From Candidatus Omnitrophota bacterium (GTDB lineage: Bacteria > Omnitrophota > Gorgyraeia > Zapsychrales > JANLHA01): a DNA stretch of 64,000 nt. Positions 12,001-58,805 of the stretch are shown here, piece after piece. The notes below the pieces were generated by a model. It was given only the letters and a program-made list of their open reading frames with translations. It ran no database searches and was not told the origin of the DNA. How positions within the stretch are numbered: position 1 is the stretch's first letter; the number at the start of each line of letters is the position of its first letter. The stretch spans positions 1,626 through 65,625 of the forward strand of contig JBBRHV010000006.1 in assembly GCA_038222225.1 (NCBI GenBank). Direction: 5' to 3'. Both the position numbers and the translations under genes were made by a program.

Positions 12001-15000
12001 TTTTACCCGGAGATGTATACGCTCCCGTCTTTGAAGAGGCGACGATCCGGGCATTGAAAAAAGTGTTGAGCATCTTAAACGCTTCGCATGAAGAGATCAA
12101 GCCGCTTGTTGGTGAGATCAGTCATGGGGTCCTTGGGATCCGGGATATGAGATTTTTAAACATCGGCGGAAGGCAGATTTCGTTTATTTCTCGAACGATC
12201 CAACACGACGGCCGCGGGCGTGACTTTTTGGGACGATTGTGCATGGCTGAAAGCGGGGATTTGAACGGCAGGAAGGCGAATATGAATTTGCTTCGCATGG
12301 TCAAAGAACATGGCCGTCCGTATCCGGTTTCTGTCCTGTTTGCCTCTGGACGAACGATTGTCCAAACGCCGCAAGTCAACAGCGCGGTGCTTTTGACCGA
12401 ACCGCTGAGAAAAATGTTCCGCGCATTGAAACCGTGGCTGGTTATCGGCGCCGTTGCTGCCTGGGTGGGTTTTGAAAGAATGAATGCGAATCTCTTTTCT
12501 GGCCCTGAAGGGGGCGCGCATGAGAAATGGATCTTTCTCGACCTTGTTTTAGCCGCCGGTGTTATTGAAGAAATTCAATACAGGTTTGGCGTGTACAGGC
12601 ATGTCTTGAGGCCTTATTTCGGCGTTGTGCTGTCAGTCATCATCAGTTCTTTAGTTTTTGTGGCGGTCCATCTGATCTTTGCGGATGGGACCTTGATCGG
12701 TTTAATATATGTCCTGTTGTTTGGTGTAATTTCTGCCTTGATTTATGAAACCAGCGGCAAGCTGCGCTACGCTATTCTTCTGCACATGATCTCGAACTTG
12801 ATTTGGATCGGCATGAGCGCCGGTCCGTTTGCATATTTTATATTCACGGTCTCGCTTATGGCGCTGATGAAATTAAGCTTTGTTCTATTTATCTTCTATC
12901 ATACGGTCATCGCTGGCGTTAATGAGAGAGGAATCAAGGCCTTTGAACGTTTTGGAAAAACTGATTCGATTGATGAATGGTTAGGTCAAAAAGTTATCAG
13001 ACCGGCGGTGGCTGTGATTAAAAGCCGATGGGCAAAACTTGGCATGAATAAAATGTGGCGAGCAAAAAGCCCGGATGGAAAAGAACATCGCCGCATATAT
13101 GCTTTGGCATTCACAATCAGTGGATTGATCCTGACCTTGCAGTTTGCCGGAGACAGGATGTTCAGATTGTTCTATCCGGTCTCGCCAAGACCTTTGATCA
13201 CTCAAGAAGAGATGCGACAGAACATTCAGCGGGAGAGGGATAAGTTTGAAGCAGCAAAACGTGCCGCCCTCGCACAGACGCCAGGACTCACCACCAATGA
13301 TATTTTTGGTGTGATGTATTCTTACAAAGCGGATCTTTCATTGATCCGGGTTGTTTTATTCCATGACGGTCGCGCATACAGCGTGGAGGTGACATCGTCA
13401 GGTGAGACAATTGTCGATCCGGTAGCGTTATCATGCTACGAGGGCATTCTTACGCTGTTATTTTCCGACGGGCATATGGACAGACATCGTGAACTTCCTT
13501 TAAACGAACGGACTTGGAATGAAGTTGAAGCTTGGAAAAATAGATTGCCTCAAAAACCTGCACCTAAAGTACGGTCGAAACAGGGCGCGCAAAATTCATA
13601 TCATAAATTCAATACAGCGAGTTTGTACAAAGGGGTCAACAGCGCGGTGTTGTTGGGTTACTCGGATAAAGAAGCGTGGAACAAAGAGTCCGGGTTTTTG
13701 CTGGATACATTTTTTACATTTGAGCAGTATGTCGCGGCGGCTTTATATGATCCGGCCTGGGGATTTTATGGCAGTGGGAAGATCAAACTAGGGTTTGATT
13801 TCGGAACCATGCCGATCGCGCTGTCGCCGTTTTTCGGAGAGAAGGTCGCTGAGCGTGTGTACGAGATGTATATCGGCATGCTGAAAGCCGGTACCATCAG
13901 GCCGGATGAGCCGTTTTACATGATCGAGTTTGGGGCGGGAACCGGCGTGTTGGCAAGGGACGTACTGGCATTCTTTAGAGAACAAGCTAAACGCGGACGG
14001 GTTTATAAACGATTCTATGACAATTTGCATTATGTGATCAGCGACCGATCTAGCCCGCTGCTGGAAAAACAAAAGCAGAAGAATGCGGAGTTCTTGGAGG
14101 AAGGCAAGATCCAGTTTGTGATCGGCGATGCTCAAGAGCTTGAAACATTCTTGGAGAAAGAGCGTCCGATCAAGGGAGTTGTATTCTCCAATGAGCTTTT
14201 GGATGCCTTCCCGTCCCATAAAGTTTACATGGATGAACAGGGAGTGGCACATGCCATGGTCTCGATACCGGCTCTTGTCGATCAGCACAGTCCTGATCTC
14301 AGGCCTGGCAGCAGAGGCCGCCTATCGTCAACGATCAGCTTGTTGGCGCAAGTCGGAAAGGTGCTTAAGGCCCACGGGCTTTCGCTTGAAACATTAACTC
14401 AAAAAAGCCGTGAGTTCGCAGGGCGGTCGAATGTAGTCAAACAGATGGTGGATGATGGGGCCGTTGTTTTAAGTCGGGAGGATTTCTGCCGTATCCAGGA
14501 AATTTTCTCCGGTGAGAAAGTCAGTATGTATCGCGAGCTTATCCACAGGGTTATGGCGTTCTCTGAGATGACGGTTCCCGCGGCGCTGGTGCCCGGTTTA
14601 AAGGAATATTTAGATTTCCACAAAGATGAAATGAGGACGGCCCTTCAGGGAGAGTCAGGATGCGCAGTTGTCTCTTCCGGGTGGCTTTCGTTTGCAAAGC
14701 ATGTTTCCGGTTTGATCGATCAGGGATATGTCTTTACGATCGATTATGGAGAGACTACGGCGACATTGTTGAGCGCCAGGCGCAGAGAGAATTTTCCGAT
14801 TTCGATCTATCATCGACGTTTGGGAAGAGAGCGCAATCCTTATCTTCACCCTGGTGATGTGGACATATCGGTTGCGCCGGATTTCACGGTCTTTGCCCAG
14901 GCGGGGCTTGTTCATGGCTTGGTTCCGGTTTATCACGGGGAGCTCCGGTTCTTGCAGGCAGATTCAACCGAAAGGATTGACTCCGCGCAAACCGCTTCAC

Positions 15001-21000: not shown

Positions 21001-24000
21001 CGACAAGCGCCAGTGTTCTAAATGGAGAAAGCCAGGAAAGTGCGGACTTTGGCGAGGATCAAGATTTATCTCAGATTCTGTTGATGGCCCAAAGGGACCT
21101 CCGGTCTGGGAACCTTTCGCGGTTTGCCGGGATCAATGCTGAAAATCATAAAGAGCGATTATCAGGATTTATTTCTGAGAGCATTCTTCAGAATGAGCGT
21201 TTTGCGCAGGTCATCGGCCTCTTGTCATTTATTTCTGATAATCAGGCTAGGTCTGCTTATGGCTATTCGCCGATTTGTGAACATATGAGTCAGGCGGTTG
21301 CGGTTGAGACGGCAATAAAAGAATTCCAGGTATTAGGCTTGGCGGGCTGGAAGGTCGATTCGAGAGTTTTGACCGGTGTCAAGGATTGGTGGCCCATCGG
21401 TTCTCATCATTCAGCCGCGATCGTTGTGATCGGGGATATTCGTTTCTTTGTCGATATGACATTTCCTGTTCTCATCGAAAGCAATTCAGATTATGCGGAT
21501 TTAAGCAAGCCTCATGGGCTTGTGATGATCCCTGAACAAGTTTTGATCGAACATCCTTCGTTCCTTCAGCTTTATCAGACAGGGATCGCCAGATCCATGG
21601 ATTGCGGATTTTCTGAAATCAAGGGCGTCCAAAGGGAGGATTTAAAATTGACCATGCGGCTCCTTTCTTTAGACGAATTTTCTGATGTGATCGAAACTAT
21701 TCCCGATGATTTTGTCGCTGAACGCTACTCCAAAGAAGAGAGAGCTGCTTTACCAGCCCAAATTGAGAGCCAGGCACTCAAGATCTATTGTTTCTATCTT
21801 CCTCGGGCGGTTTCTCAGGGAGTCCTGGCAAAAGGAGTCGGCATGGTTTTTGTCCGCCAGGAGGGAACGGGCCGTCGCGAGATCGATTTCTTTTTCTTGC
21901 GATGCAGCCTCACTTATATGGGATTTGGGCCGGAAATGATTAGGCGCGTTTTGAGAGAACTTCGCAAAGGAACATCAGGCGTGAAGGAAGTTGGAATAAG
22001 CTCCGGGTTCTTGAAGATGCTTCCGGAAGACAACGGGTCTTCAAAACGGGCAAGGCTTTCGAGAAAGTTCTTTTGCTATCTGGGATTTGAAGGTGATCCG
22101 TTGACGTTGCGTTTGCAAACTTCCGAGGAAAAAAACAAGGTCCCCTCCGCAGCGACAAATGCTTCGGTCATTTTGGATGGAAAAACCTTGAGCGAACAGA
22201 AACCGCTAACGGTTGAAGAATCGTGGCAGCTATTCGCCAGAAAGTTGGAGAAGGGGGCGCGTACGAATAGTCATTCTGGATTGGAAGACAATCCGGTCAT
22301 GTCGCATTTTAACGAGACGAAAAAAAGGAACGCGAATAATTCCTTTGAAACAAATGCGTCCATTCTTCTGGAATGGAGATTGAGGAAAATCATGCAGCCG
22401 TTTTTTGAAGGCGGATATTACGTCGAGAAGCAGGGGGATTCACGTCATGAAATGTTTCTGCGCGTGTGCCATCCGGAGCCAGAGAGACAGGGCGTGTTTC
22501 GTGGTGAAGACAAGACCCGCGCTTTCTGGGTTCAAGCGAGGGAAGATGAGTTTGAGGTCAACTGGGTCTTTCCGGATCTTCCGCCTGGCAAAGGTCTGGG
22601 GCGTGCTTTCATGGCCAGTGCACTTTTATTGCAGGATGGTTTTTGTGGAGGAAAGAAAAAGTTTATTATTGAAGACACAAAAATCTGGTTGTGCCGCAGC
22701 TTCAGAAAGCTTCCCGGATTCGGGATTTTTTATTGGGCGAAAACGTTTCAGTTTGTTGCGTTGCTGTTTTGGTTGGCGGGCCGCCGGGATGTTCTGAAAT
22801 ACAGGCTGACCGGGCGCGTACCCGAGGTTTCAGCGAAATTTAAAGCCTGGCTGCATGAAAGAAATGAACACAACAAGGGCAAGGCTGTAGGGACAGAGCT
22901 TCGAACGACCAATGCCGCGGTGTTGGGCCGTTGGGTGCATGCGTTCGAAGAGGGGTGGGGGCGTGCGGCGAAAACAACCTTGAGCAGGGTTGCTGATGAA
23001 TCGCTTGCATGGAAAAGAAAAATTAATGAGTGGGTCTCTTGGCTGAAAATTTGCCTGCACGTGACGGACCGCAGTGATCGAGTGGTTGCGGCACAGCAAC
23101 AGGATATCCAGATTATTGGAAACAATTTCGGTACGGAGCAACACCCAGCCCGCGTCGGATCGGTAGTTCATATGTCCAGTTCGCATGAACAGGACCCGGG
23201 ACTACCGGTCTGGCGCACATATTTCGAAGGAAAACTCAGCGGCGGGGTAAACGCGGCTGTGCTTGTCCCTGATCGCATGGGCAAGACGTCGGCGGACTAT
23301 TTTGATGAACTTGTCGCGCAGTTTAATGATCAAAACAATGAAGTTTGGCAGAGATTTCGTGCTTCTGTTGAAGCGAACCCCGATCAGTACGATTCAGTTT
23401 GGTTGAAAGTTTTGAAGCAGGCGCGTGCATTAGAGGTTGAAACACAGAAGCAGGTTCAAGAACCCGTGAAGATATTTTTATCGCTGGATTCCGTCTTGAT
23501 CGTTCCTGAAGATGGAAGCATGACCGGTCCTTTATTGCCGTTGGCGCCGGATTCGGAAGCAACGCATCATTTGCCTGCCCTGCCTGTGGTGCCGGAAGCA
23601 ATTCTTTTATTCATTTTCGTTTTGAGCCGCAAAAGACAAGGCCGCGGGGGGAAAGGCAGGGAGTACAGTTTAGCTGCATTCGTTGAGAGCATGCAGAGCC
23701 GATGGAAGGCCGTGAAACGTGCTGGTTTTACGGGCAAAGATTTCTTTGGAAAACGCCATGTCTATAATCTCACGTTGCGGTCTTCGTGTCGGAATTTTGC
23801 GTCAACAGGGTTGAGTGATCCGTCCGTAAAGTTTGCAGGAGAAAGTAACGCATCAGTTCTGAAGGATGCAAAGAATCGTGAGAAGCGTGACAGTTTCAGA
23901 AGTGGACGGCGGTCTCTTTCTGTCGTGTTCACCGTTCTTGGAGTTGCGATCGTTTTGTTTATCGCGCAGACAGCTTTGGCAGGATTGGAAAGGGCGGCCT

Positions 24001-27000
24001 TGGGGTCGGTTTTTGGAAAAACTTTTGAACTGTGGAAACAGTTCCATGGTCCAGACGTGGTTATTTCCATCTTGGCAACTGCAGTGATTTGGACTGTTTA
24101 TCGGGTCCTTGTTTCATTCAGGGCCATGCGGGCCCGGCTGGGTGAGCCGGCATTATTTTCAGGTTGGCCTGGAATTGCGCGTGTGATCATCGCAAAGGTT
24201 TTAAAGCGGATTGTCTATCCGCACAATAAAAATGCGAAATGCGCATCGGCGGCGGGTTTCCGTTCCTTTGCCCGGAGTTCTCGCCGGAAAGAGGTCCGTG
24301 AGGCCCTGATGCGCGCTTCAGCTCTGCTGCGCGAGTCCCAGCGGCCTCTTCTGGTTAAACACAATGATATAAGGAACGTCCTGTTTTTATTATTCCCGGG
24401 CCACATTCCAGCGGCGGTACGTTTGAAGGGCGAGATTATCTGGTCGCCATGGTGTCCGAGCAAGGAGGCCTTGATTTCACATTTGACCAGCGTGATGGGG
24501 ATTCGTCAGGAAGAGGCGCAGCTCACAGCCGATCTGGTTGAGATCTGCCTTTCCCAAGAGGAAAATGTCTGGCCTCATTGGCAGGCTGCCCGCCGGTATT
24601 TCAAGTCCATCCGTTTCAGGGTTCAGCAGGAAACTTGGCGGCTCATTGGACGTTCTTCAGATCGGCAATTAAAGGTTTACCGCAAGGCTGTCGAAGACCT
24701 CGTCCTTTTTAGGCTTGAGCCGGCCGGCGGGAAATCGGCTCCCATAGTATTTTCGAAGTTCCGGGAGAGGCTGGTTAAGTTCTTTGGTGAGCGGCCCGAA
24801 ACTGCGTATATCGCAGGCTTCGATGGTGAACTGATCGAATGGCTCTATGCCATATACGATGGCGGACTTGGAGAAACAGCGTTTATCCAGGAGGTGGTTC
24901 GCCTCATGGATGTTGCTAATAATGTGGATCATGCGATGTCCGACCATGTTGAGGGCGCATTGAAGGATGCCGGAATTGAGAACCTGAAACCAATGTCCGT
25001 TGTGTTTGCTTTTGATCCGCACAGCGGGACTGCGGCAGATATTCTCAACGGAAAACTCAGAATTAATTATTATCAGTACATGTCGAGTGTGGCTAAGGTA
25101 GAGGAATTGCTGGAGACCCTTCTGTATGATATTTACTTCCATATTATTTATGCGGATCAAATGCGCTCGAATGAATTTTGTGATCAGGCTTCGCGCTCTG
25201 AAGCGCCTGGCGTGGTCAAGGGAAGTTATTTGCGAGGAGAATCGTATCCGGTTTCAAGTTTGGAACAGGGGGACCGTATTCGTCTGCATGAACGATTGGC
25301 CAAGCTGACCGCAGAAAAGATCGCCGCACAATTGGTGTTTGGGAAGGATTCTCAGATCGCCGGTTTGAGGCGGCGCTTTGTGGCGACGTGTGCTAAGTTC
25401 AAGTCCGGAGCGTCAGTCGCAGAATTAGCACTGGAAGTCGCTTCGCGAAGAGCCGTCCTCCAGGTCGAAGGACATGCCGGAACCTTGACAGAATCCGCCC
25501 GACAGCTAACGGAGTATTTGAAGGCTGCGCTATCGGCTGATTTGCCGGAACAGAAGCAGGTTATGGATTATATTGAGATTCAGGCACAAGCCATGGCGGT
25601 ATTTTTTGAGAAGATTGAACTGACCTCCGATTTTCGCGTCAGGCTTATGTCCACAGCGGGCTTTTTTGGGGAAGGCGCGCATGATCGTCACGGCATAGCT
25701 GAGGTCGGCATGAATGGGATTGGGATCATTCCTGTCAATCGGCTTTCTTTTGATTTCTTATTTGAAATAAAGGCCCGCGTTGCGGCTGCGCTGACCGGAT
25801 TCCGTTACCGCAAGATGGTCAATGATCAGCAGGCTGTAGTTCATGGTCAGGCTAATTTGCTGTTGTCCAATCCGATGGCGCGCGAGCTTTTGATCAAGAC
25901 GTTCCGTTTAAACGGAAGCCGGGATCCAGAAAAACGCGCGGATGATGTCCTGGCCGGGCAGCATGATCTTTCCCGTTTTGAGGAGGAATTGAAGGCAATG
26001 CTGAGTGCGTTGGGATCCCGTTATGTGAAGGTTGGATGGGATGAACAGGGAAGAGTGATCTGTCCTTTGCTTGATCCAAGTCAGATGAAAGAGGAGATCC
26101 TTAAAACGCGCTTGCGCGGCAACGTGATCGTTTTTGCGATCCGCCCAACGGTCGGCGGCCGCGCTTTATTCTCGACCTGCCTTCCGGATGACGATGATAA
26201 TTTTATTTATTATCATCTTCGCGGAGCTATAGAATTTGATGAACAGGGAGAATGTAAGGGGATCATTCTCCAGGGAGGGGAACCGCGCGATCCTGACTTG
26301 TTCATGAAATATCATGGATATTTCGGCGTATATTCAGAAAAAGACCTGATGGCGATCCTGCGCAATGACATGATCCTGGCAGCCCGCCGGTTCATGAAGA
26401 GCGGCCTGTTTGATCCGCATACGGAGGTGGGGATTTTATATATTGATCAAAACGGAGTTGATCAGTCGGAGAAGGTCCGGCTTGTCGACCTTGCCCGTGA
26501 TGTTCTGTACCGTCAGCACGATGCTCCCCAGCAGAATCACCCGAGCTATGTTCCTCAGACCCGCATACTTGCCTTAGGAGAAATTCTGCTTTGGTACAAT
26601 TATTTCCATTTGAAAAACAGACTTGGGTTATTGCTGGATTCAGAAGCGAGAGAGTATCTCAGCGCCGTCAGATCGCTCCCTTGTTATGAGAGCCTTGTGC
26701 GTCATTTTCCGACGGTGGAAATTGCTGAGGTTGACGCGCTGCCCCTGGTGGACTCCTCAGGGGAAAAGACCGGTACCAGGGTCGGAGATTTAAGGATGTT
26801 CGGTTCATGGAAGCCGTTCCTGACAGCAGAAGATGCGCATTCGAATAAGACAATGTCTTGGGAACAGCGAGTCATGACGAATGCATCGGTCAACAGCGGA
26901 ACAGAAGACGATGAAGGACCTTTGAGGGAATCATTGATCAGGAAAGAGGCGGGTGAAAGTATAGCGGCGGAAGCTTGGTACATGGGACAGGAAAACGGGA

Positions 27001-30000
27001 AATATCGCGACTTTGGCAGTTATTTGGCAACCCATCCATGGGTGTATGATCTGAAAAAAGGAAAAGCCGACAGCGGGGCCAATTCATCCGTACTGGGACG
27101 CAGAGTTGAGCTAAAGGATTTAGTTTTTCAATTTGCTTTTGAGATGGAACGCCGCGGCCGCGTGATCCGCACCCGGGCAGGAAGGATCCTTGATATTGAA
27201 GAAGACACTGAACTTAAGCGTTCCAGGGTTATAAAAGAGGAGGGGATGAGCACGTACCTCTTGGCTGACCGTTATGAGAGAGGATCGTCCTTGATGGCCT
27301 GGGTTGCGCAGGGAGAGATCATTGGTTACGGCTCTTATGTTCTGTCAGAGAACGATTCAGCGTGGATCGGATTCTGCATTTTTGAAGAGTATCGTGGCCG
27401 TGGGTTTGGCAGCCGGGCCTATTCAAAGTTGATCAGCGTTACACAAAACATTGGCCTAAGGCCAGTTGTGCAGTGGAGATATCCGCCTATTACTGTTTTA
27501 AACAAGAAGCTTTATCCAGGTGCGCGCTGGGATCTTTTGCCGTTTTTGTTGAGAAAGGGATTCCGTCCGTGGTTTGCTGATATTTCAGAAGAACACATTG
27601 AGCGTATTGCCAGAGGGGAACATGTCGGTTCCCGTATTGTTCACCGGTTGGTCCAACAGCCGTTGGTCTTGACGGACCACGCGAATTCCGCTGTTTTGAC
27701 TTCAACAACAGTTGGTCACGAACCGTTCGCTTACCGTGTGTGGGTCAAAACACCTCCGGTGTTAGCCGAAGGTAAATTTGCGGAATTGAGTGTAAAGGGT
27801 GGCTTATTGAGCGCGGCCAGATGCGCCGAGCTTAACGCCGAGTTGGAAGGAGCGAAGAAAAAAATTCTAGCCGAAGGATTCTTTGATGAAAAAGATTTTG
27901 ATCTGGAAGTCCGCATTCTCCGACGTGCCTACCATAGTGAATCCTTCACGCGACAAGTTAAAAAGACAATTCTTTTCCTTGATGAGCGGACATTCCAACA
28001 TTCGTTTGCTCTTTATCTTGCCGTTAAACATGCCATAACAGATCTCTGGGTGGATAAAAATGCGGAAACGCTGATCGCGCATGATCAGTTCGGACATCTG
28101 AAAGATTATATTTCGGAATCTTCCAAAGGAAGATCTTTTAATCCGGCCTGGCGTGAGATTTTCACGATCTTAAACGTTAATGTTTTTGAGTTTTTGCTTT
28201 TGCGTGATCAAGCTCTCAAGAAAGCTGAAGAATTCATTCGTTCGATCGGAAAAGAGGCGGCCGTGCACGGGCTGTTTTGGCTTTATGTATTGATGCTGTC
28301 TGATAGAGAAAAAAAGACGCCCATAGAATGGATCGGCGTGGTTTTCGCCCTTGTCTCTTACAGCCCTGCTGTTTATCCGGCTATCCGAGCACGGGCGCAT
28401 GCTTTTGGTATGTATGAGAATCCGCAGAGGGCACAAGCTTTAGCGCGGAGTGTGGAAGGGGTTTTTGCAACCAAGGACTTGCAGATCGGGGCACAGGCTC
28501 AAGCCAGGCTTCAGGAGTTGCGCGGCTATCAAAAGCAAAGCGAGATTGACCGTTTGGCGGAAAGCATGAGAGCTCTGGTTTCTGCAGTGCAGCGCTTGAC
28601 GGATGAGGGATACAGGCCAGAACAGTTGACGTTGGCGTTTTTCAAAGACGTTCCTATTAATCCGGTTGATCGTAAATCGTGGTTTAAGCCGTTTAAAAAA
28701 TGTCAATGGGATGATCCGTTGCAGAGGAATTTGAGTCTCGGGCGGACATCGCGCGTGAGGAAATCTCCGGGATCTAACAGTGCGGTGCTTAATGGTTTTG
28801 AGCCGTCCGGGTCCTCTATAGGGCATCCGGGCCCAGCTGCTTCCAATAAGGTTTGGCTGATCGTTGCGTTTGTGCTGCCCATCGTTCATGGACTGAGCAT
28901 TGTGCTGGCGAAATATATTCTGGGCGTTCAGCTGGTGCATCCGATTGGGTATTTGTTTGCGTTTTTTGCTTGGACAAATATCTGGATGTTTTTGTTCCGG
29001 ATCGCACAGAGCTTCAGCAACGGCCAGCGTAATGAACAAACGCCATGGAGCTTGTTGCGCCATTGGAGTTTTACTCATCGGGAATGGACGGTGCTTGAGC
29101 AGTCGACCCGGGCAGAAAAGTGGATGATCCGCGTGAACGCGTTATTCAGCCAGTTTATTCTCACGCTGTTATTTATTTGGTCACTGAAAAGCGGCCTTTT
29201 AACAGCGGTTTATTCCATTTTGCAGACCTCCGGCTTTGTGTTCGGCCTGTTTCTTGGAGCGCTTGTTCTGGGAAAAATTCTAAATATTCACGCGGAAAAA
29301 TTACGGTTCCGTCATTTCGCCGGCATTGGTTTAGCTGTGACCGGGGTTGTGTGGGCTTTGGCAAGTGTGGGCATAAGTCAGGGCCGCGGGATCCGGGGCC
29401 TAATTGAAATGGTCATCAGCGGCTTAACCAGTTCGGGAGCAGGGTATGCCATCGGGTTGGCCGGGCTGGTCGGCTTTCAGGCCCTTCTGCAGAAGATCAT
29501 TATCAGTGTGATGAATAAGGGCAAGCCGTACCGGCAGAAACAATTGCCTTATGTTATGACAAAATACGGATACCGGTTTGGGATCACGACAGCGTTGTTA
29601 ACGCTTCTCGGATTAGCCATCATTTCTCCTGCCGTGGCTCCGTCGGTCGCTGAGATTGCAGCGTGTTTTTTCAATCCGTATTTGATCGCCTTGGCGGGAA
29701 TTTTTCCAATGATATGGATCACGACCTATACCTTGTACCGCAAACTTCCTTTATTGCAGCTGACCTTTTTCCGTGCAACCATTCCTTTCTGGGTCATGCT
29801 CGGGTCATTTGCCGCAATGCATACAGCGGTGACGTTCAGCCAGGTCATATCCGGGCTTTTTGTTCTATCGGCGGCGGTTGTGGCAGCGACGGGCACTCAG
29901 AATGGAAACAATCAAGACGCGGTGCCGGATTTTCAAGCAGAGAACGGCCAGGACAAAAGAGAAGTTGTCGTACGCTGCCATTCTTGGTTTAAGCCATGGG

Positions 30001-33000
30001 AAAAAAGGAAGAACCGGATCCATTTGCGTCCGGCCAGTAGAATTGTTTATGTTGCGAAGTACATCTGGGATCAATTGAACATTCGTATGATCGTTGAAAA
30101 GGAAGGAGATCAACAACAGGTGGATGCCCGAAGTATCAACGGCCTTGCACGTCTGGCAATCTTTGACGGGGAAAAAATTTCAATTCGAACAGAGGGCTTG
30201 GCAGATAGGCAGATCAAAGGCAAAGCGGTTGAACTTTTTGCTAGGATTTTGAGAGACCCGGGGGTTCTTCAGCACAAAACGATTTGGGACATTTTTTATT
30301 TCTTTGATGAAGGGCGGGGGATAGATCAATTGTCCTTGCGTAAATATAAGCGTGCGGTTGATTTGATCAAGCTGGATGCGGCGGAGTCGGACCGACCTGA
30401 TAGGGCGCAAGTCAATTCCTCAGTTCTATTCGGAGCATCTCTGGCGCAGATCGATGCCTCTATCGTTGGTGATGTGGTCGGAATGATCATGTTTGCTTTG
30501 GGGTCGGCGGTTACCTGCATTGCGGCCCTGTTGATATGGCTGGTTAGAACACAGCGGTTCCGTATTCATGGGTTCTGGGTTAGGAGCTATACACCGGAGG
30601 AGATGAAAATTCGCCGGAGCGTTCATGCGCGGATGATCGATTTTTGCATCGGAAGCAAGCATTCTCAGAGAATGGCAGCTCAACGCATGGCGGGCCGTTT
30701 TACGCATTCGGCACGCAAATCATACAGATATCTTGTTGATATCTATGGAAGAGAAAAAAGCAAAACGGAATTTTTAAAATTTTTGAGAGAAACAGAAAAG
30801 GATCGACTGGTTACTTTTTTAGTTTTCTTAGAAAAGAAGAAGATGCGGTTGATCGTCGCTCCGCGATTTGTGGAAGGCGGAAAAGAATTCCGTCATCTGG
30901 ACATGCAGCATGGGTTCGCTTTGGAGGGCGTTCTAAAAAATTATGTTTACGGATATTTTGAAGGGATTGACCCAACGGACGATCAAGGAAAGATCGTGCT
31001 GATGTATTTGGCGGGGGAGGAGGGGTTCAAACAGCTACAAGAGTTGGCATTTTTATTTATTACAGGCGGAATATCCATAGTGAAGCCAGTCGAGCTCTTT
31101 ATGGATTCGGGAACGATAGGTGAGATCAAGACTGTGCGTGATCTTTTGCGTGTTGAGTATTTCTATCAGATAAAAAAGCAGAAGCAAAAAGAGGCGTTAG
31201 AAAAACGCATTGCCGAGGATAGGGCCGCGCAAGACGGGACCAACGCGGCGGTTTTAGAGAACGGCACAGCGGATCATGAACAGGACGGTGGCGAAACAAA
31301 TGCCGCGGTGCTGGATTCCGAAAACGAAAGCAAAGGGGAATTTTTGGCCGGGACCCAGCAGGGGATTCGGCTTGGGCTTTTGACACTTGAGGAGGCGCGT
31401 CTTTGGGAGAGGGCGGCAAAGATTGTTGATGCTCCTGTCGGCATGGAGATAGAATTCAGTCATCCGGAAATTGCGACATTAGGTGATGATGAGTATGATC
31501 TTCCCTATTATATTAGCGAACATTATTCGGATCCTCATTTGGAATTTAATCTTGAGCCATCTTGGAATCTTGGCATTCAAAGATATTTGGTAAGGCATAT
31601 TTACCGCAGTATGGGGTTGTCTGAGGATGATGTGATCTCGGTCCAGTTAAACTGCGGTATCCGCAAGAAAGATTATGAGGGGCTTTCTCAAGCTTCCCGC
31701 GGATTATTTTTATCTATGGCGCATTATTTAATGCTTGCGGTTACGATCGTTTATGCATCAAATCAAAGGATCTTATCAAAGAAATCAGAAAAGGTGGCCG
31801 AAAAACGGGATTGCGCTGAACCGCTTGATGGAGAACCCTACATTCGGATCGAATACGGTTTTCTTGATACGATCGATGAGGGGTGGCTGGTTCTCTGGAT
31901 CTTGCATCAGGTTATTTGGAAAACTGCAAGGTTCAGCGACGATCAAAAAATTTCCGGCAAACTCATTCGTGAAGAGGAGCAGTTGCTAATCAAGATCGGG
32001 CAGGACATGGTTATTCAATTGCATGAACGTCTTCCAGGTATTAGAGGATTAAGTGCGAATGATATATTTGACCTGTCGGATGCTCGGACGTGGTTTAGGT
32101 TGGTTCCGTGGCGCCAGGAAAATCCTGCTACGGTGAAGGCCATTGACAATCTTCTCCAGAAAACTGTGCTTCAAGTTTTGTCCACTTTAGGAGGGTCAAA
32201 CCATACGCCAGAGAAGGAAGTGCCGGTTTGGATTTTACCGGCTGGAAATCGGGAGACATTTTTAAGATGGTTTGGTAATCGGGAGCAGGCGATTGCTCAT
32301 ATTCCTGAGCCTACAGGTGGACAGGACGAGGTAAGGGATGGCGGAGTTAATTCTGCCGTTTTGGATCAGAGAAACATTGTTGGTGTTGAAGTGCACTGTC
32401 CGGCAGGATCAGGATATTGGCTGAGAGATATTCTTTATGAAGGGATCCCGGTTCAAGGCGGGCTGGTGATCCGGTATTATGATCAGTCGCGGTGGTCGTC
32501 AGGAATTGCAGGGATACGGACGGTTCGCAGTGATCATGGATTTTTTACAGAAGTGGATATGTTAAGAATATTAAATGGAGAGGTCCCGACAGACATTTTC
32601 TACGTGGGGGCTTTTCATTTGGGATGTGTTCGGCATGCGTTTGAAAGCGCGCTTCAAATTCAAAAGACAGGCCTGTGGAACGGGTCTCAAGCAAATCATC
32701 ATTTCATTTCAAACCGCATTGCCTGTGATTGTGATGATTTCGATATTCGTGTCAGTGATGCTTTGCCGAGGCTGAATCTGAGGACTGCAACGCCGTTTGC
32801 CTGGCGCAGAAATTGGAGTGTCAAAGCAGCGGTTATTCGGGGAGATGAGGTTGTAAGTAACACACGATTTATCGATCAGCTTCAAGCGAGGCTTTATTAT
32901 TGGAACGATGTGCCGGAATTTAAGGAATGGATAAGCCGTGGGATTCAGCAGACAAACGCAGCGGTTTTGAACCAGAGAATGTTTGAGATCGTGGATACAC

Positions 33001-39000: not shown

Positions 39001-42000
39001 TGGCGTTCGCGGAAGATCTTGTTGCCCTCATGCCGGATCCTGAACACTTTGATGAAACGGGTGAGTGGATGACGTGGTTTAAGCCTCATGCATTTAATGG
39101 GAAATTCACCCTTGAAGCATGGGGTCTCGGGCAGGAGTTCATCGATCGGTTGAACAAGGTGCGCGGGGCAGACACGAGCAAAATCAACAGCGTCGGGGTT
39201 AATTCGTCTATTTTTGGTCATTTATTCGGGGCAAAGAAAGAAGCGGCAGACATTGATTCTACGGAGGTCAGACAGGAGATAACAGAGTGTGATTTTGATC
39301 AGGCCGTGCGCGGAGTTCGACGCCTGGTTAATGAAACGCCGACAAATGAAATTGCAAAAGTTCTTTACGGCCTGCTTCAGTATGAGGAGGACTATTTGTA
39401 TTATCAGATTGTTCGTTATGAGGCTGCCAAGAGAATAGCCAAGGCATCGGTGGAGGAATATGAAGATCTGAAACAGTTGATCAGCACATTGCGGATGCTC
39501 GGGAAGATGATTGAAGATCGCCAAAAATTGTTTGAGGAAACAGGGGAAACGAACGTTGACTTTTATTTATTAGCCCTTCGACAGTCTCGACAGAAGTTAG
39601 CAAGATTATTCCGTTTTCATATTCGGGGGTATGAGAATCTTGACCGGGTCGTTCAACGGTTGGACAGCGACACGGTGGAGTATTTATTTTCGTTCTTCAG
39701 CAGGGCATCAGTTCAAGAATTCACCAGCTTAGATGAGCTCATGCAGATCATGACATTTGTCCGGCGGCGCACTTCTTTGGTGGATGAAGATCTGTTGGCG
39801 CGCGCCAAAGAAAGCCTTGAACGGATCATGGTGGAATGGGTTTGTGAAGTCGGCGGAGAAAAGGATCCTGATCTAAGGAGCCAAGAAGTCAGGAATATTC
39901 TAGAATACATTACACAGCATGATCGGACATTCCGTCAGAAATTGAAAGAAGGCATCAAGAGGGCCATTGGTTTCTTAGCCCGTCAAATCAGAAAGAGTCA
40001 AGATGACGCAAGGGAGGCGCAAAACTTGGCAGATAAGAAGGCCGTTGAAGGACGGCAAAACACACTGATTGATTTAAGCGTGAGTTATTCGGCGCTGATG
40101 ACAGCAGTGGATGATGAGTCAGGAGACGGAAATCTTGATGGAAACAATTTATGGGAAAGCCAAGACAGCCAACAGACAGATAAAAAATCAAACAATGATT
40201 TGGGTGCAAATGCTTCTGTATTGATGGGAAGAGAAAATTACAGGCATCTTAAAAAAAGATTTGATGATACAAACGCGGCGCTATTGATTGGAAGAAGTGA
40301 CAGGTCACAGACAAACAAGGAAATAAGGGCGAAGAGGCTCATTCAGGGGTCGATTTTAAATGCGTTTCTCTTTTGTCTTCCTGCTTTGGTCATTGCGGTG
40401 ATCGCTGTTGTGACTTGGGGGCCAAGCTGGAAGATATTTGTGGCGGTCTGGGTTATTCTGGCGTTAACACGGTTTGCAATGTCCATGCGCCATATTCCCG
40501 ATATTTGGAGAACATTGCAGGGCTTAGGTACGCCAACGAAGGGCGGCATCATTGAATTGGCTAAGGCCACTAAGACCAAGATGGAAAGGAAAGCTGTGGC
40601 GCGTGAGCAAGCCCGCAAGAAAGCGATTCATCAGGCCAAGGCTGCTATGGGCAGGGTTTCTCCCAAGAGTTATGCCATACAAGAGGAGTATAGCACCGAG
40701 GTGGGCCGAAAGATCCCGGCGGAACTTAGAAACGACGAAGAAATTGTTGAGCAATATGAAAAATTGACAGCCCGTGCGGAAGAATTTTTTGCGCGCAAAG
40801 TACGTTCACAAAAACCGAAAGAGACTGCGCCGCAGCATATTCCTGAGGTGGCACCAATACCGATAGAGCCTGTCCAAAGACAGGAAGCGCCTGAGGCGCG
40901 CGAAATGGCCAGAAAACGGTTCATTCGTCGACAGCTGGCTGAGGCGCGCCGTTATATTGAAAAGCTGGACAGCCGCGGGTTTATGAGCGCGCATGAGTTT
41001 TTGAACGCCGCCGAAACGTTTAAACCGGAGTGCGTTAAAACATATCCGGATGATGCTCAGGTGAAGGATTTTCTGACGTGGTTTGATTGTGCAGTTCAGG
41101 CTGTGGCACAACAGGTCGCGGATAATGTTCGGCGCATGGAATTTGAGGAGCGCAAAAAGGAACTGCTGGCATCATGGCGAATGATGGTTGAGAAATTGGA
41201 AAGAGCCCGGCAACGGCTGGATCAGGCTATGGCGGCAAGGATTTCCAAAGACCGCGCTTCGTTGGCAGAGTTGCAGAGAAGGATGGATCAACAGGTCGCG
41301 GATAATGTTCGGCGTATGGAATTTGAGGAGTGCAAAAAGGAACTGCTGGCATCATGGCGAATGATGGCTGAGAGATTGGAAAGAGTTCGGCAGCGGCTGG
41401 ATCAGGCTATGGCGGCAAGGATTTCCAAAGACCGCTCTGCGTTAAGTGAGTTGCAGGTAAGGATGGATCATCTGGCAGCGACCATAGAACAGCTTCGTCA
41501 GGCAAAAGATGTTTTGCGCGCGTTGACTTTGCCATCCGCGACCGCCGGTGAGGATGATTTGCGATCCGCGATTTTACAGGTGCTTCCCGTTGAAGTCAGA
41601 GAAGACCCGCGCTTGGCGCTTTTTATCGAACAGGCCAGGTTGCGGTTGTATGAACACGCTGTGACGCGGGTTTTGGATATTTTGTCTCAGTCTTCAGTTG
41701 ACCCCAGAACTTTTGATGACAGCGAGGCCTTCCGCCAGGCATGGATTGCGAAAGTGCCGGTATGGATGCAGGAGGATCAACGTATCATTGCAGCCCTTGA
41801 AGAGCGTATTGATCAAGGCCTTTTGGTAATAACCGAACAGGAGAAAAAGTCTGCTCAAGTTAAAAGGGAACAGGCATTAGAAAAAAGAGCGACTATTGGG
41901 GAACTTTATACCGCCTTAGGAAAAAATGATTTTGGAACGGCACTGACGAAAGCCTTTAAGTTGCGCACATTGGTTGCTGATATGCCGGTAGAGGATTGGT

Positions 42001-45000: not shown

Positions 45001-48000
45001 AGACGACGGATCAGCCGGTCATTGAACGGATCCAGAACCGTTGGGAAGTTGGGGAATTGGAAAACATGCCGGACATTTACGAGCGCGTACCTGACCGTCT
45101 TCAGGCCCTTGCGCTGGCCCACCGCTATGTTCGTCAATATGGGCTTAAGTCGATCCTCTTTCTTGAAGGAGTCGGTCGAAGAAAAAGTAGAGAGAGAAAC
45201 GAGATCGGCGGAGTGGGCGTGGGACTTTATAACAGCCGGTATACCATCAATCGATTAGGGGGAAAGATTGATCTTGATGATACGCGCTCGGGCCGGACCA
45301 CGTTCGCGATCGGATTTTTTGTCCGGGAATTTTCATTGAGGCAAAAAGGATCGGATGCGTTTGTTAGCGGTGCTAACTCTGCGGTTTTTAGGGGATCGAA
45401 GGATTCTTCTCTTGATTCTCTGCTTGAGAGCATCATGGCGTCCCACAAAGAGAGCGGGGTGCGATCAACGCCTTGGGCTGCAAGGATGGACAAGCCGCTT
45501 GACCGCACAGGATTCAACGGGCCGCACCTTTTCGCGAATATTGAATTAACGAACGAGCAGGTTCGGTTGTTCCTTATCCTTAAAGAGCATAAACAGGCGC
45601 TCCTCAATTTACTTGGTGAAAGCTTCAGAGCTGTATTTGGGAAAGCGGCAGGGATCCTTCTTAATCAAAATGTTTCTGGATTTAAGGCAACACAGGTCGA
45701 TGAACAGTATTTAACTTGTACCGTTGGTGATCTTTTTATTCCAGCCATCGAAAATGCTTTTGATGCCTATATGAAAAAGAGCGGCCAATCATCCGATGTT
45801 CCGTTGGTTCTTGAATTTTATATTTCCTTTGATGGCCGGGTGATGATTGCGGAGATGCGCACCAATGGTCTGTCGTATGATTCCGGTGAGACCGCGACCT
45901 CCGAAAAGAAAAAGGACTCGGATCAATTGGGTGGAAAAGGGCGCGGACTGAAAGCCATTGATGAATTTGCTGCATGCATCGGCGGGATCCAGTGGGATAT
46001 CCGAAACCGTAAAGATCTTTTTCCTGAGGATGCGGAAGGATCTGTTTTTTATGTATCTCTTCAACGGGATAAGCTTTCTCAAATCGTCAGTCATGCGGCG
46101 AAGTTTTTTGGTCTGGGTTCGTGCGCGACATGCCCAGAGGATAGCGTCAGAAGAAATGCCGACGCAACGAGCAAGAATAGTGGAGCGAATTCTGCAGTCT
46201 TGAACGGAAACACGGATGATTCGACGGGAAGTGATTCTCAAAAGAAGCGCTTGGAAGATTTCTTGAGCATGGCTAAAAATTCACAGTTGGAGGCGTTTTG
46301 GTTAATTCATGAATTAAAATTGGATCAAATTGAGCGGGCCGTTTCCGTTGGCAGCGGCGTGCTTGCGTTGGCGCCGTTTGAAATGATTTTAATCGAAAGC
46401 GGTGTTGTGGTTACGATTTTTGATCCCGATCCAAACGTTCAGGAAAATTGGGCGCAGTATAAAGCGCGAAGGCTTAATGGCCATTGTGTTGACCTTGTAC
46501 CGTTATCCAGATCAAAATTTGGAAGTTCAGCACAGCCGATCCAGGGTGCGCAGATGTATATTACGATGAATGTTTTTGGTCGTTCGGGCATTCCTATGAC
46601 AGAACGTGCACAAATGTTAGGCCTCTTAGCGAAAAGTTTTAAAAACGGGGACTTTCTTTTGAATGGATGGTGCAGTCCGCTGGCGTTTGAATTGATTGCA
46701 AATTCGCCGGCACCCCAAGAGGATGTCAGGGTCGAGACCGCGCTCAATCACGAGCATATGCTGGCCTTGGTGAATCTTTTGGAATCGCGGCATATGATGT
46801 TGGAGCCTGTCCGTTTCGGCAGGAAGGAGGACGTTCTTCATCAGAGGGACTTTTATCGAATTATTCCGCTCGGATCACCGGTGATGCCGGTAGCTGATAA
46901 AAATCGAAAAAAGAAGGGTGAGCGCCAGCCTGGAAAGAGGATGTCCGAAGATAAAGGCGCCAATGCTGCTGTTTCGCAAAATAATGAAGGCGTTCCGGCG
47001 GATGATCGAGGGATCGATTGGAAAGGATTAAGGGCAGGGCTTGAGCAGGGAAGTTCCTTGTCGTTCGGCAAGGTCAAGCAGCTGATCCGGGCAGGGAACA
47101 AGAAGGTGTTTGGTCTGCTGCAATCTGTCGTCGCCGGCCACAGCAAACAAGAGGCTGCGGTTTGGCATTTTATTTTGACGGTGGATCTTGATCGGGAATA
47201 TTCAGCCCATTTGGGTTCGAACATGAGAAATTTGAAAATGGCTGTTATCCGGGCCGCGCAAAAGGATCTTGAAAAAGGCGGTGTGCCCGGGTCCGATCTT
47301 CTGGAGCAGTCTGTGTCCTATGGTGATGAAGATTCTTTGAGCGCTCTTCAAAGGGTGGCCTTCGGTGTCAGCAAAGGGAAATTCCTTGCGATCAGAGTAA
47401 TCTTTGAGGCGCAAAAGGAAAAGAGTCCGGCGTCTCCGCAAATACGGGCTGTTTGCCGGGGATTTTTGAACACGATCGCCTATAAATTAGGCGAAGGGAT
47501 CGAGAGGGATCCAGAAACGGGGTTACTCATACTTGGAGCGCTTGTTTTTGAGATGCCTTGTGAACCGATAGGGGAAGGGGCCCGCGGGATATTAAAAAAT
47601 ATCGTCGATGGGAAGTGCCGGTTGACTAAAGAGAAAAGGATTGAGGCGTTGAATTCTTTGGTGGAATGCGTTCGTGACGGAGGCTCTGTCGATTTGCTGG
47701 AGTGGATTTTGAAGGGCGTGGCCGCGCTTGACGGCAAAGGCTTCCCGCGTCTCAATAGCTGGAGCGTTCAAGAGATGCTGGGTTCGCTTTTCCACAATGT
47801 TTCGGTGGCGCCAGTATTGCGCTTGTATGCTTATGGACTGATGCCATTGCCGGAAAACGAGACCGAAGCGCTTGTATTAGCTAAACGTGTGTTACATGAA
47901 AAGGCCCATTTGACCTCCTTGGAACTATTTTCAGACAGCGGTGTTTGGCACAATGAAGAGCTTAAGGTTTATATCTTGGCCGTGTATTTGATTATGGTTG

Positions 48001-51000
48001 CGAAAATAAAAAGAAGCAGTTCCTTTTTTTCACGATGCCAGAATCAGGAAGATGACATCGACAGCATTATGACCGGCACGATGCTGAAAGAAGATTACGG
48101 CGGGATTGGTAACAGCAAGCTGCAGTTCGGGCGCAAAGATCTTATCGAGGACCGCAATGAACCGAAGATGATGTTCGGTACCTGCGCCCACGAGTGGACG
48201 CATATTTTTAACCGTTGGATTATTGAAATTTATAGGATCGAAGAAGAGGATGGACAGGATGCGATCGATGAATTTTTGGCGGATCTGGGTGCGGAAATGT
48301 TTTTTGGAGAAATGGGCTGGCAGCAGGCAAAAGAGGTGCGCCGGAATAAATTTGTATTTCAGCACGCGAAAGTATTTGGGCGGAGTCCCCGGGCAGATCA
48401 GATCAGCCATGAGCAGCATGAGGCGGCCCGTGTCGCCTATAAGGAGATGCAGCGGTTTTTGGAAGCCAGGGAAAGGGAGACCGGTGAACGCGTTCCTCTT
48501 TCTGGAGAGATGCTGTTTTATCTTTGGGGTGCTTTGGGAGAGAGGAAAGCAGAGGAGATATCGTTTGTCATGTTGCAGGATTTGCTGCAGGTCCGGTATG
48601 GTTATGCGGAGTTTGTTCATCGGCGGAAAAACAAGTTCCAGTCCCGTCCCCTCGCGGATAGCGAGATGGAAGAAAAAGGAGTAACGCAACGTGAACCTGA
48701 TAAGGACATTGTTTATGTGATCAGATGTTGGCATGTAGAGGAAGAGGAGCGCGCCGAGCTGTTTGAAGGACCAAATGTTTTACGAATTGCTGTTTCATCC
48801 GGCACAGAACCGCAGGCCAGCGGATCCCAGGATATTCAGGTCATACAAGAGGCAACAAACCCGAAGGATGGAGAAGCGCCATCTTCTAACGCCAACTCTG
48901 CGGTTTTAAACTATTGCGTCGCGTGTTTTGCCGGCGTTGTCGCGTCTCCCTGGGTCGCATTGCCGGTTGACGTTGTCGCAAGCATTGCCATGATGTGGGG
49001 AATCATTGTTATGTCTGAGGGGATCGAGATGCGGCACTCTTTAATTTTTAGGGCTCTCACCTGGATCAAAGACCGTTATGAATCACGCAAGGTCACGATC
49101 GAATTTTTGAAAATGGTCTTGAGGTTTGCAAACATGGTTGGTTTGTATGCGCTTTTATCTTTTTCGTGGGGAACGCTCATTTTGCAATGGATCTCGTTAT
49201 TAAGCATAAAGCTGGATTGGCCTGAGTGGATGACTTTTATAGCAGCGCTCCTACCGGCAGCAGCCTTCATCAGCGGAGTAAGTATGGTGGTGGTCCCGGA
49301 GATCATCCGGGTGCATAAGGAATGGAAGAGATATCTTAAGAATATCCGGGGAGATCGTGCTCCGGAATGGATGGCCCAAAAATACAGCCATATCTCCGCG
49401 GAAGAATTGCTCCACCGTTCGGTGAGGATGAAGCGTATTGGGCGGGTCTTGTTAGCTGCTGTTTGGGGAATAGGTATCATTCTTTTGGCGATGTCGTTCC
49501 AGCATGCTCCGCACATGAAAGTTCTTAAAGGCATAAGCATTGTTGTTCTGTTTTTTTATTATCAGACATTGGTTGCAGCCCGGGAAATGAAGAAAATGGC
49601 AGAAGAATTGGAGCAGACAAAAATTCTAAGGGAGGCTTCTTTAAAAGCCAACCGATCCAGGGCAGGGCCGCCGGTCAGTTCTTATTCGGATTTTAAAGGT
49701 GGTATCAATTCAGCAGTATTGAGTGAACAGAGCGAACCGGATCATACGTCTCCCAATAAAGCAATTTTTGATTTTGTTCGACAGAGTCTCGGGGATGGAA
49801 CAACCCAAACAGTGAATGAGGTGGCGGAAGCGCAAAGACCCGTGATTCTGCAGGGTGGCAGAGATCAGGCGCTTAGAGCAGGTAATGATTCTTTGCCTGA
49901 TGATTTAAGAAAAGTCAATGCCGGTTATCAAGCGGACATTTATTTCTCGCCGAGTCGACGGATGTTTTATAAGGTCAGGAAATCCACGCTGTCTGCCTAC
50001 TATAGGTCATTACGGAATCATCTTCTTGATCGCGGGCTGTTCAGAACATCGGCGTATCTGTGGATTATGGACACGCTGCGGAAAAATTATCAAAGGTCCG
50101 CTGGAATGAAGACCGTGGAGGGTCAGCCTTTTTACGATATTCTTTCGCAGGCCGGTAAGGCCGGACGGCCGAACACCGGTGTTCTTGTCCGCATAACGAA
50201 GATGCTTAAGGCCTTCAGAGCGGTTGTTAGTTTTTGTATTGTTATGGCTGGCAGTATGTTTATTTTTTCAAAGACGGTCAGGGCTGAGAAGGCGCTTTTC
50301 CATGACAATTATTTCAAGGGTTATGAGGACATGCTTAAGTTTGGGTTTGTGCAGCAAGGATATGTGGCAGATTTTCGAGTGATCAGTGTCCCTGCGGAGG
50401 ATCGGAATGGAATTTTTAAATGGAGATGGTTGGAGCGGAACCGAAAGGTCATTGAACAGTCGGAAGTGGTTGAACTGATACAGGTGTTGCGGGAAATGAC
50501 GGATGCGCAGTTTTATGTAGCGGTCGAGCGTTACATTGAGATCCAGCATGCGTTTTGGCGCTGGGGATTTTTTAATCATGCTTTGGGATTTTTGGGAAAT
50601 TATGGATATGTCAAAGATAATGGTCAGACCAACGGACCACTGGTCCTTTTTGACCCGGGAGAGATCGTTAGTAATGGTGATAACGCCGAAGATAAAATTT
50701 TGGAGGTAGTCGAGCGCAAGAAGGAAGGGGCGTATAAGGACCTCAACGCATTGAATCCAGTTTGGGGGCAGTATTACAAGGTTAGAGTTGAGGCTGAACT
50801 AAACCGCTCCAAATTTTACGAGCTTTGGTGCAGTGAAGCCGGGTGCCGGATAGAGACAATCCAAAATTATTCCACTAACGCCGCGGTCGGTTCCAAATCC
50901 CGTTTCGTTAGCCGAAAAAGGGAAAGAGAAGATCGTCCCGCGATGGCCTTGCCGAGTTGGGAAGAGTTCAAGGACCCTCGACGGTCATGGCTGGTAAAAT

Positions 51001-56891: not shown

Positions 56892-57002
56892 CTGGCCGGG
56901 ATTTCTATAAAATGGTTTTGGTAAAAATAAAAAATTATATGAATTTTAGATTTTATGTATAATAAGTGAACTTGCGGTTGTTTTATTAGGGATATTGAAG
57001 AC

Positions 57003-57011
57003 GAAGGAGAG
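57003..57011 (+). promoter_or_regulatory. Shine-Dalgarno sequence (GGAGAGG) for the aldolase gene
   Basis: aaggagaggaaaaa ATG: a purine-rich SD lies 6-8 nt upstream of the ATG at 57018. The 125-bp AT-rich intergenic region upstream also contains TATAAT at about 56957-56962. Confidence 0.5.
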
Positions 57012-57017
57012 GAAAAA

Positions 57018-57968: not shown

Positions 57969-58147
57969 AAGACAGCGTAAAGGGAAGCGGCAGGTGATAG
58001 AAATACAATTGAAATATAATGGAAATACATAGAAATAAGAAATTCGGAAAAAGAGAAAGCTTAATCAGAGCAAGTAATCGTTAGGGTTTTTTATTTCAAT
58101 GTATGTCTATATTTTTCCATGTATTTCAATCTGTTTTTAATTTGAGT

Positions 58148-58777: not shown

Positions 58778-58805
58778 TGTCTTGTGATGATAAGAGGCAT
58801 AGATA

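Follow-up and report, generated by a model that had tools for sequence, protein, structure and literature searches.

A single giant open reading frame (ORF) fills most of the 64,000-nucleotide stretch analyzed here (the window), which was taken from contig JBBRHV010000006.1 of the Candidatus Omnitrophota assembly GCA_038222225.1. The ORF (nt 78-56891) lies on the forward strand, as do all features described below unless stated otherwise, is free of stop codons, and encodes 18,937 amino acids (aa). Along its length we identified ~53 copies of a hexapeptide tag with the consensus [T/V/A]-N-[A/S]-[A/S]-V-L, which divide the protein into 54 segments of 19-1038 aa each. The data show the tag to be genuine and under selection as a peptide; it lies in polar linkers separating complete, unrelated domains. 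The best explanation as a whole, which we consider somewhat probable, is that the tag delimits the units of a processed polyprotein, and that the very short intervals present between some of the tags are leftover linkers. The hexapeptide would thus be a selected delimiter at the boundaries of ~50 independent cassettes fused in one Omnitrophota ORF; it would most likely be a site of recognition and cleavage, at which the polyprotein would be resolved into individual enzymes along with membrane and exported proteins. The tags would be the points where cassettes are gained, lost and swapped, and an event not perfectly flush with a tag would leave an orphaned linker between two tags, seen as a mini-module of 19-71 aa from tag to tag. 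Should cleavage occur, each mini-module would come free as a by-product, a spacer peptide whose sequence is not conserved.

The tag greatly exceeds chance expectation. Its strict form, N[AS][AS][VILM][LIVMF], occurs 43 times in the ORF, whereas 1000 shuffles of the protein averaged 1.2 occurrences and never exceeded 6, and the window's other five reading frames have 1-3 each. Ten additional sites are one-residue variants (e.g., TNGAVL, TSAAVL, TNASVN and TNAAVQ). We built a logo from 93 sites of two species, the window and an Omnitrophota relative described below, numbering positions relative to the Asn. Information was restricted to the seven positions from -2 to +4, the flanks carrying less than 0.6 bits per position. 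The Asn is the strongest position (4.6 bits; present in 90 of the 93 sites). It is preceded at -1 (2.1 bits) by T (45 sites), V (20) or A (13), and at -2 (1.0 bit) chiefly by G, E or Q. Small residues follow, with S (46), A (45) or G (2) at +1 and A (64) or S (29) at +2, and then V at +3 (82 sites) and L at +4 (80 sites). The V-L pair forms a small hydrophobic island amid a polar linker: averaged over the sites, polarity exceeds that of the protein as a whole from -14 to -2 and again from +5 to +16.

At the DNA level the tag is not conserved. Its Ser residues use both AGC and TCN codons, its Leu residues five of the six codons and its Val residues all four; no codon is constant and no nucleotide core survives among the copies. 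Even two TNAAVL copies standing in tandem (nt 31239 and nt 31296) differ at 6 of 18 nucleotides. This free variation of the codons indicates selection on the peptide, not on the DNA. Several other identities were considered for the tag and discarded. A recent tandem duplication or DNA repeat was ruled out by the free differences in codons between copies, an alternative genetic code by the absence of any constant codon, and an N-glycosylation sequon by the presence of Ala at +2 in 64 of the 93 sites. Protein splicing, which calls for a Cys, Ser or Thr nucleophile next to the Asn, was also rejected, as Pfam scans of the ORF returned no Hint match and +1 is Ala in 45 of the 93 sites.

The placement of the tags relative to domains was examined with Pfam scans over the whole ORF (E <= 0.01), for which we report best-stretch matches. 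Every reported match sits between two tags and none crosses a tag. The AlaDH domain pair is a good example: it starts 30 aa past one tag and stops 17 aa short of the next. Outside the window's species, the tag architecture was found in one other species. Homology searches with regions of the ORF returned one match in all, making the protein nearly an orphan; neither aa 6433-9202 nor a chimera of three regions including two of the short intervals had any match. A scan of genome collections identified a 20.8-kb stretch of a Candidatus Omnitrophota metagenome-assembled genome (MAG) (L001; JAKLFA010000005.1), in which one frame is open from end to end (6949 aa) and carries at least 19 tags (19 perfect). 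A profile of the tag built from 53 sites was then searched against 1.84 billion representative proteins. Three of its 12 matches had the same architecture, all from one NCBI Omnitrophota MAG, and their clusters yielded the protein P0014 (6662 aa, 17 tags) plus smaller fragments; the other nine were unrelated tandem-repeat proteins. A metagenome scan recovered the same organism as the genome scan and no other. Thus, in the collections searched and at the sensitivity used, the tag architecture is present in only two species, and the relatives of the giant ORF are confined to NCBI and GTDB MAGs labelled Candidatus Omnitrophota, with 48-82% identity. We also noted two short, unrelated proteins (P0008 and P0006) with TNAAVL in tandem repeats (VIATNAAVLGSKANQ four times and RETNAAVLTGLIDST five times, respectively); these repeat units are probably coincidental.

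The giant genes of the window and of the relative are collinear and differ by whole cassettes. We counted 22 ends of homology blocks that were not simply the ends of fragments; 15 of the 22 fall within 12 aa of a tag, against 6.6% of random positions. At ~18 alignable junctions the tag is kept in both species while the linker around it has diverged, and in one otherwise conserved stretch the window carries a tag that the relative does not have (GGVNAAVL, nt 23241-23264, a 6-aa insertion). Homology breaks between the species therefore coincide with tags, and we read them as points where cassettes have been gained, lost and swapped. In domain scans, the relative's cassettes include additional unrelated families (Bac_transf, CofD, VTC, Sa_NUDIX, PPDK_N and methyltransferases) and show no recognisable protease. 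Such turnover at the tags, together with a TPR insertion in the window that is flanked by tag copies, is also what one would expect if the tag were a footprint left in the DNA, by a recombination site or a recent tandem duplication, rather than a selected peptide. With codons that are not conserved, tandem copies differing as described above and no nucleotide core, we regard this as extremely unlikely. Domain swaps occur inside cassettes as well: the cassette at nt 49707-52385 and its counterpart in the relative (L001 17828-20848) share 62% identity over the N-terminal 330 aa, but have distinct C-terminal halves, Methyltransf_24 in the former and PPDK_N in the latter, and no tag separates the two parts.

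The initial annotation of this region had drawn attention to two motifs only 13 aa apart, separated by an acidic peptide, and to three other unusually short intervals. The translation of nt 31239-31313 does read TNAAVL-ENGTADHEQDGGE-TNAAVL, in the context AAQDG-TNAAVL-ENGTADHEQDGGE-TNAAVL-DSENE. The first of these tags (nt 31239-31256, aa 10388-10393) closes cassette 28 and is conserved in the relative, as VNSAVL. The acidic spacer (nt 31257-31295), which we count among the mini-modules with orphaned linkers, has a homologous counterpart in the relative, where it is expanded into a longer, N/G-rich spacer (NSNGKNGNANGNGHEEEG). The second tag (nt 31296-31313, aa 10407-10412) exists only in the window; the relative reads GMIASL in its place, and homology ends there, with an unrelated 1212-aa cassette following. 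The three other intervals are likewise present, at nt 22173-22349 (59 aa), 26895-27077 (61 aa) and 52401-52595 (65 aa), three of their bounding tags being degenerate. The list was incomplete, as we found two more: another near-tandem pair, ANASVL and TNAALL (nt 40206-40286), whose basic spacer (nt 40224-40268) is 15 aa long, and a 31-aa interval at nt 5142-5234 between the degenerate tag VNSSVQ and ANAAVL (nt 5124-5252 in all).

Comparison with the relative indicates that these intervals are species-specific and sit at points where cassettes have been gained or lost. The 59-aa polar interval, bounded by TNASVI and TNASIL (nt 22155-22367), is absent from the relative together with the 384-aa cassette preceding it; there, a single tag links the end of the homologue of window aa 6704-6974 to the counterpart of the cassette that begins at aa 7426. 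In place of the 61-aa interval, bounded by the degenerate tag TNASVN and by ANSSVL (nt 26877-27095), the relative has three full cassettes (622 aa). The 31-aa interval lies at the upstream edge of a TPR cassette that is specific to the window at this position, and came with it; the relative reads RRFYKVSASAATNAAILPSKLVPGQTPGW straight through, with one tag, and has its own TPR cassette elsewhere in the gene. The 65-aa interval is acidic and is bounded by INAAVL and the variant tag TSAAVL, followed by a SEC-C zinc motif (nt 52383-52613). The relative in turn has 25-aa tag-to-tag intervals of its own that are not homologous to any of these (L001 aa 3267-3297; P0011 aa 905-935).

The short gaps are not enriched over random spacing. 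Measured from Asn to Asn, the six are of 19, 21, 37, 65, 67 and 71 aa, the bulk of the gaps begins at 113-155 aa, and the median is 304 aa. If as many sites were placed at random, 3.0 gaps of at most 21 aa would be expected, and we observed 2; gaps of at most 150 aa are in fact depleted (8 observed vs 17.7 expected, P ~0.0005). The intervals are also compositionally distinct. Their mean hydropathy is -1.0 to -2.1 (-0.26 for the 31-aa interval), compared with -0.21 for cassettes of at least 150 aa, and their polar fraction is 0.65-0.92, compared with 0.56. The view in the initial annotation that 59-65 aa is too short for a folded domain does not hold in general, since small domains of such size exist, though the intervals here are far more polar than the cassettes. 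The same annotation had left two fates open for the intervals, release as bioactive peptides or spacer remnants, and had proposed that orthologous giant genes be compared. That comparison favours the remnants, and its outcome is the one the annotation had named in advance as a refutation. Cutting at both flanking tags would indeed release peptides of 13-65 aa, some of them strongly charged (net -5, -8 and +2), and these could act in signalling or as antimicrobials. We consider such a function very improbable: none of the four comparable intervals is conserved as a unit in the relative (the 59-aa and 31-aa intervals are absent, the 61-aa one is replaced and the 13-aa one altered), short gaps are no commoner than random spacing predicts, and neither Cys pairs nor amphipathic cationic helices nor leader-like features are seen in the intervals. 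Polar and not conserved, the mini-intervals are best read as linker remnants of cassette turnover.

Some cassettes carry export signals shortly after a tag. A twin-arginine (Tat) signal peptide (MSRRSMLKMLALAGASLPFMTTTAFA, nt 3702-3779) followed by DEPT starts 17 aa after the tag at nt 3651, and the orthologous cassette of the relative has its own Tat signal (MLSRRQMLKGLVLAGMALPFMTSRAYA), likewise followed by DEPT. A third Tat signal (NRRGFLKSLAVLCGG) follows another tag in the relative. Thus, in three cassettes, two of them mutually orthologous, a Tat signal begins 16-27 aa past a tag; the three peptides match Pfam TAT_signal alone (E = 0.002-0.004). In addition, inspection by eye revealed a lipoprotein-type signal (RARTVLAAGLAGLVALSGC) directly after one tag in the relative. 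Tat and lipoprotein-type signals act at a free N-terminus. Their position just after tags, in one case in both members of an orthologous pair, suggests that the cassettes acquire their own N-termini, and points to a processed polyprotein. Such N-termini could in principle arise by operon-like internal translation starts. This was ruled out, as neither Met nor Shine-Dalgarno sequences are enriched after tags: the Met frequency is 0.011-0.028 there and 0.021 in the background, and Shine-Dalgarno-like sequences precede 11% of post-tag Met codons and 9% of those elsewhere.

The same signals bear on the possibility that the tag is not cut at all, being instead a linker or docking element within one membrane-anchored multi-enzyme chain. 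In the docking version a chaperone or the TPR cassettes, for example, may serve as a shared binding partner of the tag, and the mini-intervals would simply be longer linkers. The hydrophobic V-L island in a polar linker would suit a binding motif, and our domain scans identified no cognate protease. An uncut chain would also agree with Nielsen & Lui (2026 preprint, 10.64898/2026.06.07.730766), who treat the "multi-enzyme" class of Omnitrophota giants as single membrane-anchored chains and suppress internal signal-peptide calls. Against this stand the export signals, which need a free N-terminus and include a Tat signal retained in the orthologous cassette of both species, as well as the fact that one hexapeptide borders dozens of unrelated folds, in cassettes gained and lost as independent units. 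Topology raises a further difficulty. A crude hydropathy scan detected no transmembrane segment between aa 216 and 4183, so that in an uncut chain either the Tat signal would be inactive or the kinase, ATPase and GNAT cassettes would be carried out of the cytoplasm. Elsewhere in the protein, polytopic membrane cassettes are scattered among cassettes requiring cytoplasmic cofactors. Overall, we regard the uncut chain as rather unlikely, and give proteolytic processing at or near the tag, as judged from these sequence features, about an even chance of being correct.

The ORF itself encodes candidate proteases. A rhomboid intramembrane serine protease cassette (Pfam; nt 78-725, aa 1-216), with the first tag directly after it, retains the catalytic Ser (GLSAVV) and His (GAHLGG), and an Rce1-like/CPBP intramembrane protease cassette (Pfam; nt 12378-13637, aa 4101-4520) has its catalytic motifs intact (EEIQYR, FVAVH and HMISN). 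A third candidate, possibly a metalloprotease, is an orphan cassette at nt 46962-48893 with two HEXXH motifs (HEKAH and HEWTH) ~100 aa apart; 27 aa past AHEWTH comes DAIDEFLAD, an arrangement that is gluzincin-like by eye. Several bonds within the tag could be the one cut. Asn, the most invariant residue of the tag, could be the residue cut after, by a legumain-type enzyme, whose P1 the Asn would equally suit, or by Asn-lyase chemistry. Cleavage after +1 would place [T/V/A]-N-[A/S] before the bond and [A/S] after it, that is, an aliphatic or small residue at P3 and small residues at P1 and P1', which resembles the A-X-A rule of signal peptidase I. A cut after +2 would be like that of rhomboid substrates (small P1, hydrophobic P2'), and a cut after the Leu like that of MARTX toxins. 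The herpesvirus assemblin sites VQA-S and YLQA-T (PMC4498786) are comparable to the bond after +1. The likeness of the assemblin, signal peptidase I and rhomboid sites to the tag, if cut after +1, lies in the residue pattern only. Unlike the first two of these systems, the ORF has no assemblin-like or S26 domain in our Pfam scans, and the linkers around the tag lack the hydrophobic segment normally needed in substrates of signal peptidase I and rhomboids.

Since no protease is linked to the tag, we also considered separation without one, either by self-cleavage at the Asn via a succinimide, as in asparagine peptide lyases, or by "skipping" of the nascent peptide. The nearly invariant Asn and the residue next to it, always among the smallest, would fit this. 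Known Asn lyases, however, depend on a folded catalytic environment, unlike the variable polar linkers in which the tag is found, and the tag is unlike NPGP, the motif of 2A peptides; skipping has no known precedent in bacteria. Moreover, the constraint on V (+3) and L (+4) equals that on the small residues, a pattern more in keeping with protease subsites. This type of mechanism thus appears improbable.

Several points weigh against a processed polyprotein with leftover linkers. Proteolysis itself, the bond cut and the protease responsible are all things we infer, and none of the three protease candidates of the ORF is tied to the tag. The HEXXH cassette has no support from Pfam, NCBIfam, PDB sequence searches or AlphaFold (mean pLDDT 40.7, run without an alignment), and the relative has no CPBP cassette in its syntenic region. 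In the usual topology a rhomboid active site faces the periplasm, and most of the linkers should be cytoplasmic. The Tat matches score 17.5-18.4 bits, under the Pfam gathering threshold of 22.7, and may be remnants of recent fusions. With the tag known from only two species, the comparative sample is small, and two of the mini-intervals (nt 40224-40268 and 52401-52595) have no orthologue for comparison, because their queries found no match. Finally, an AlphaFold model of the 65-aa interval, also run without an alignment, gave a weak hint of a beta-meander (mean pLDDT 49.7).

The remaining cassettes with Pfam matches are diverse. After the rhomboid we found APH and Metallophos (aa 217-1191), TPR (aa 1721-2198), Pkinase (aa 2199-2952), HATPase_c (aa 3167-3399), Methyltransf_28 (aa 4521-5103), HPr following a run of ~nine hydrophobic segments (aa 9567-10112; Pfam and hydropathy), PALP (aa 10960-11344), AlaDH/PNT (aa 11345-11805), and SEC-C with GNAT (aa 17508-17938). 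Several other segments match GNAT (~five in total) or HTH. By hydropathy, the membrane cassettes include the rhomboid, the CPBP protease, the one with ~nine hydrophobic segments and others with ~five or six. The SEC-C zinc-binding motif (NDPCPCGSGKKYKKCC, nt 52599-52690) stands 12 aa past a tag, at the very start of its GNAT cassette; this motif is usually located at a protein terminus. Among the orphans, a 1011-aa cassette (nt 23847-26879) that has two hydrophobic helices at its N-terminus and matches nothing in Pfam or NCBIfam is 82% identical to the relative's copy without gaps, the best-conserved cassette seen. Relaxed Pfam and NCBIfam scans of 10 orphan cassettes returned no match, and PDB sequence searches were dominated by TPR matches or were empty. 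The last cassette (nt 56070-56888, aa 18665-18937) shares ~43% identity with one of the relative's cassettes, the true orthologue of which lies at window aa 7612-7923, indicating that the ORF contains diverged paralogous cassettes.

The frame of the ORF has no stop codon from nt 3 (nt 3-77 were checked) and is open at the 5' edge of the window, so that the gene may begin upstream of it and other cassettes may precede the rhomboid; the relative has at least 3940 aa of other cassettes upstream of the homologue of window aa 1179. Three ORFs of 212-353 aa on the reverse strand (nt 3135-4196, 28440-29078 and 48030-48734) are probably spurious, as they lie inside the 57-kb coding frame. Downstream, nt 57018-62559 contain ordinary bacterial genes (HMGL-like, KDPG aldolase, PMT_2-like glycosyltransferase, a radical SAM protein and MnmA). 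Nt 54530-59152, which take in the 3' end of the giant gene and the adjacent downstream region, are identical to a 4.6-kb Logan contig from run SRR19962012.

In functional terms, viral polyproteins and MARTX toxins are the nearest analogues of the protein. Viral polyproteins, such as those of picornaviruses and flaviviruses, have short consensus sites in linkers, and closely spaced sites in retroviral Gag release the spacer peptides SP1 and SP2. As in these, one ORF here encodes many unrelated proteins, including membrane-spanning ones, which would be the mature products as read from the sequence alone. It contains several independent, complete proteins, in that complete domains lie between tags and cassettes are gained and lost independently, and it has a short consensus site at the junctions (~53 tags with a seven-position logo, conserved in a second species). 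The mini-intervals, if cut out, would resemble the Gag spacer peptides. Unlike viral polyproteins, the gene lies on a bacterial chromosome, comprises ~50 units, as against 10-15, has one uniform tag throughout, and encodes no chymotrypsin-like, 3C or aspartic protease detectable by Pfam. MARTX toxins, in which a cysteine protease domain cuts the inter-domain linkers by autoprocessing and frees the effector domains, are likewise large bacterial proteins with several unrelated enzymatic domains. In contrast to them, the ORF has no Peptidase_C80 and no RTX-type repeats in the whole-ORF Pfam scans, its cargo includes housekeeping-type enzymes and polytopic membrane proteins, and its tag differs from the MARTX Leu-X sites. 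A polyprotein encoded on a bacterial chromosome, in which over 50 unrelated proteins (enzymes, polytopic membrane proteins and Tat-exported ones) are synthesized as a single chain and separated by cuts at the uniform tag, with the mini-intervals as spacer peptides, is something we propose only tentatively, judging it slightly short of an even chance.

Giant multi-enzyme ORFs, a recognised puzzle, have been described in Omnitrophota by Nielsen & Lui and by West-Roberts et al. (2023 preprint, 10.1101/2023.11.21.568195). The protein reported here is like the "multi-enzyme metabolic cluster" giants of Nielsen & Lui, which are encoded in single ORFs of at least 10,000 aa: it has 18,937 aa, ~20 different Pfam families with none dominating (methyltransferase, HATPase_c, GNAT, kinases and TPR among them), and interspersed transmembrane helices. 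It is unlike the Archaeovorins of West-Roberts et al., whose characteristic dockerin, C39 peptidase and SecA domains were absent from our Pfam scans. West-Roberts et al. suspected proteolysis and stated that the cleavage points were unknown, a gap that, as they wrote, held up their analysis. Term searches of the two preprints returned no recurring delimiter motif, nor did searching the literature for the tag strings yield anything relevant. To the extent of the literature searched, a delimiter tag of ~50 cassettes has no previous description.

The findings on the short intervals are deflationary, as these are not a hidden class of bioactive peptides. The tag itself makes the question of whether the protein is cut, and where, directly testable at ~53 predicted sites, and offers rational points at which to split the giant protein for structure prediction. 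It also shows that giant genes of this kind evolve via the shuffling of cassettes at tags. If our interpretation is true, the tag would supply, for the first time, a concrete map of cleavage sites in a giant protein from Omnitrophota, and the gene would represent an operon implemented at the protein level.

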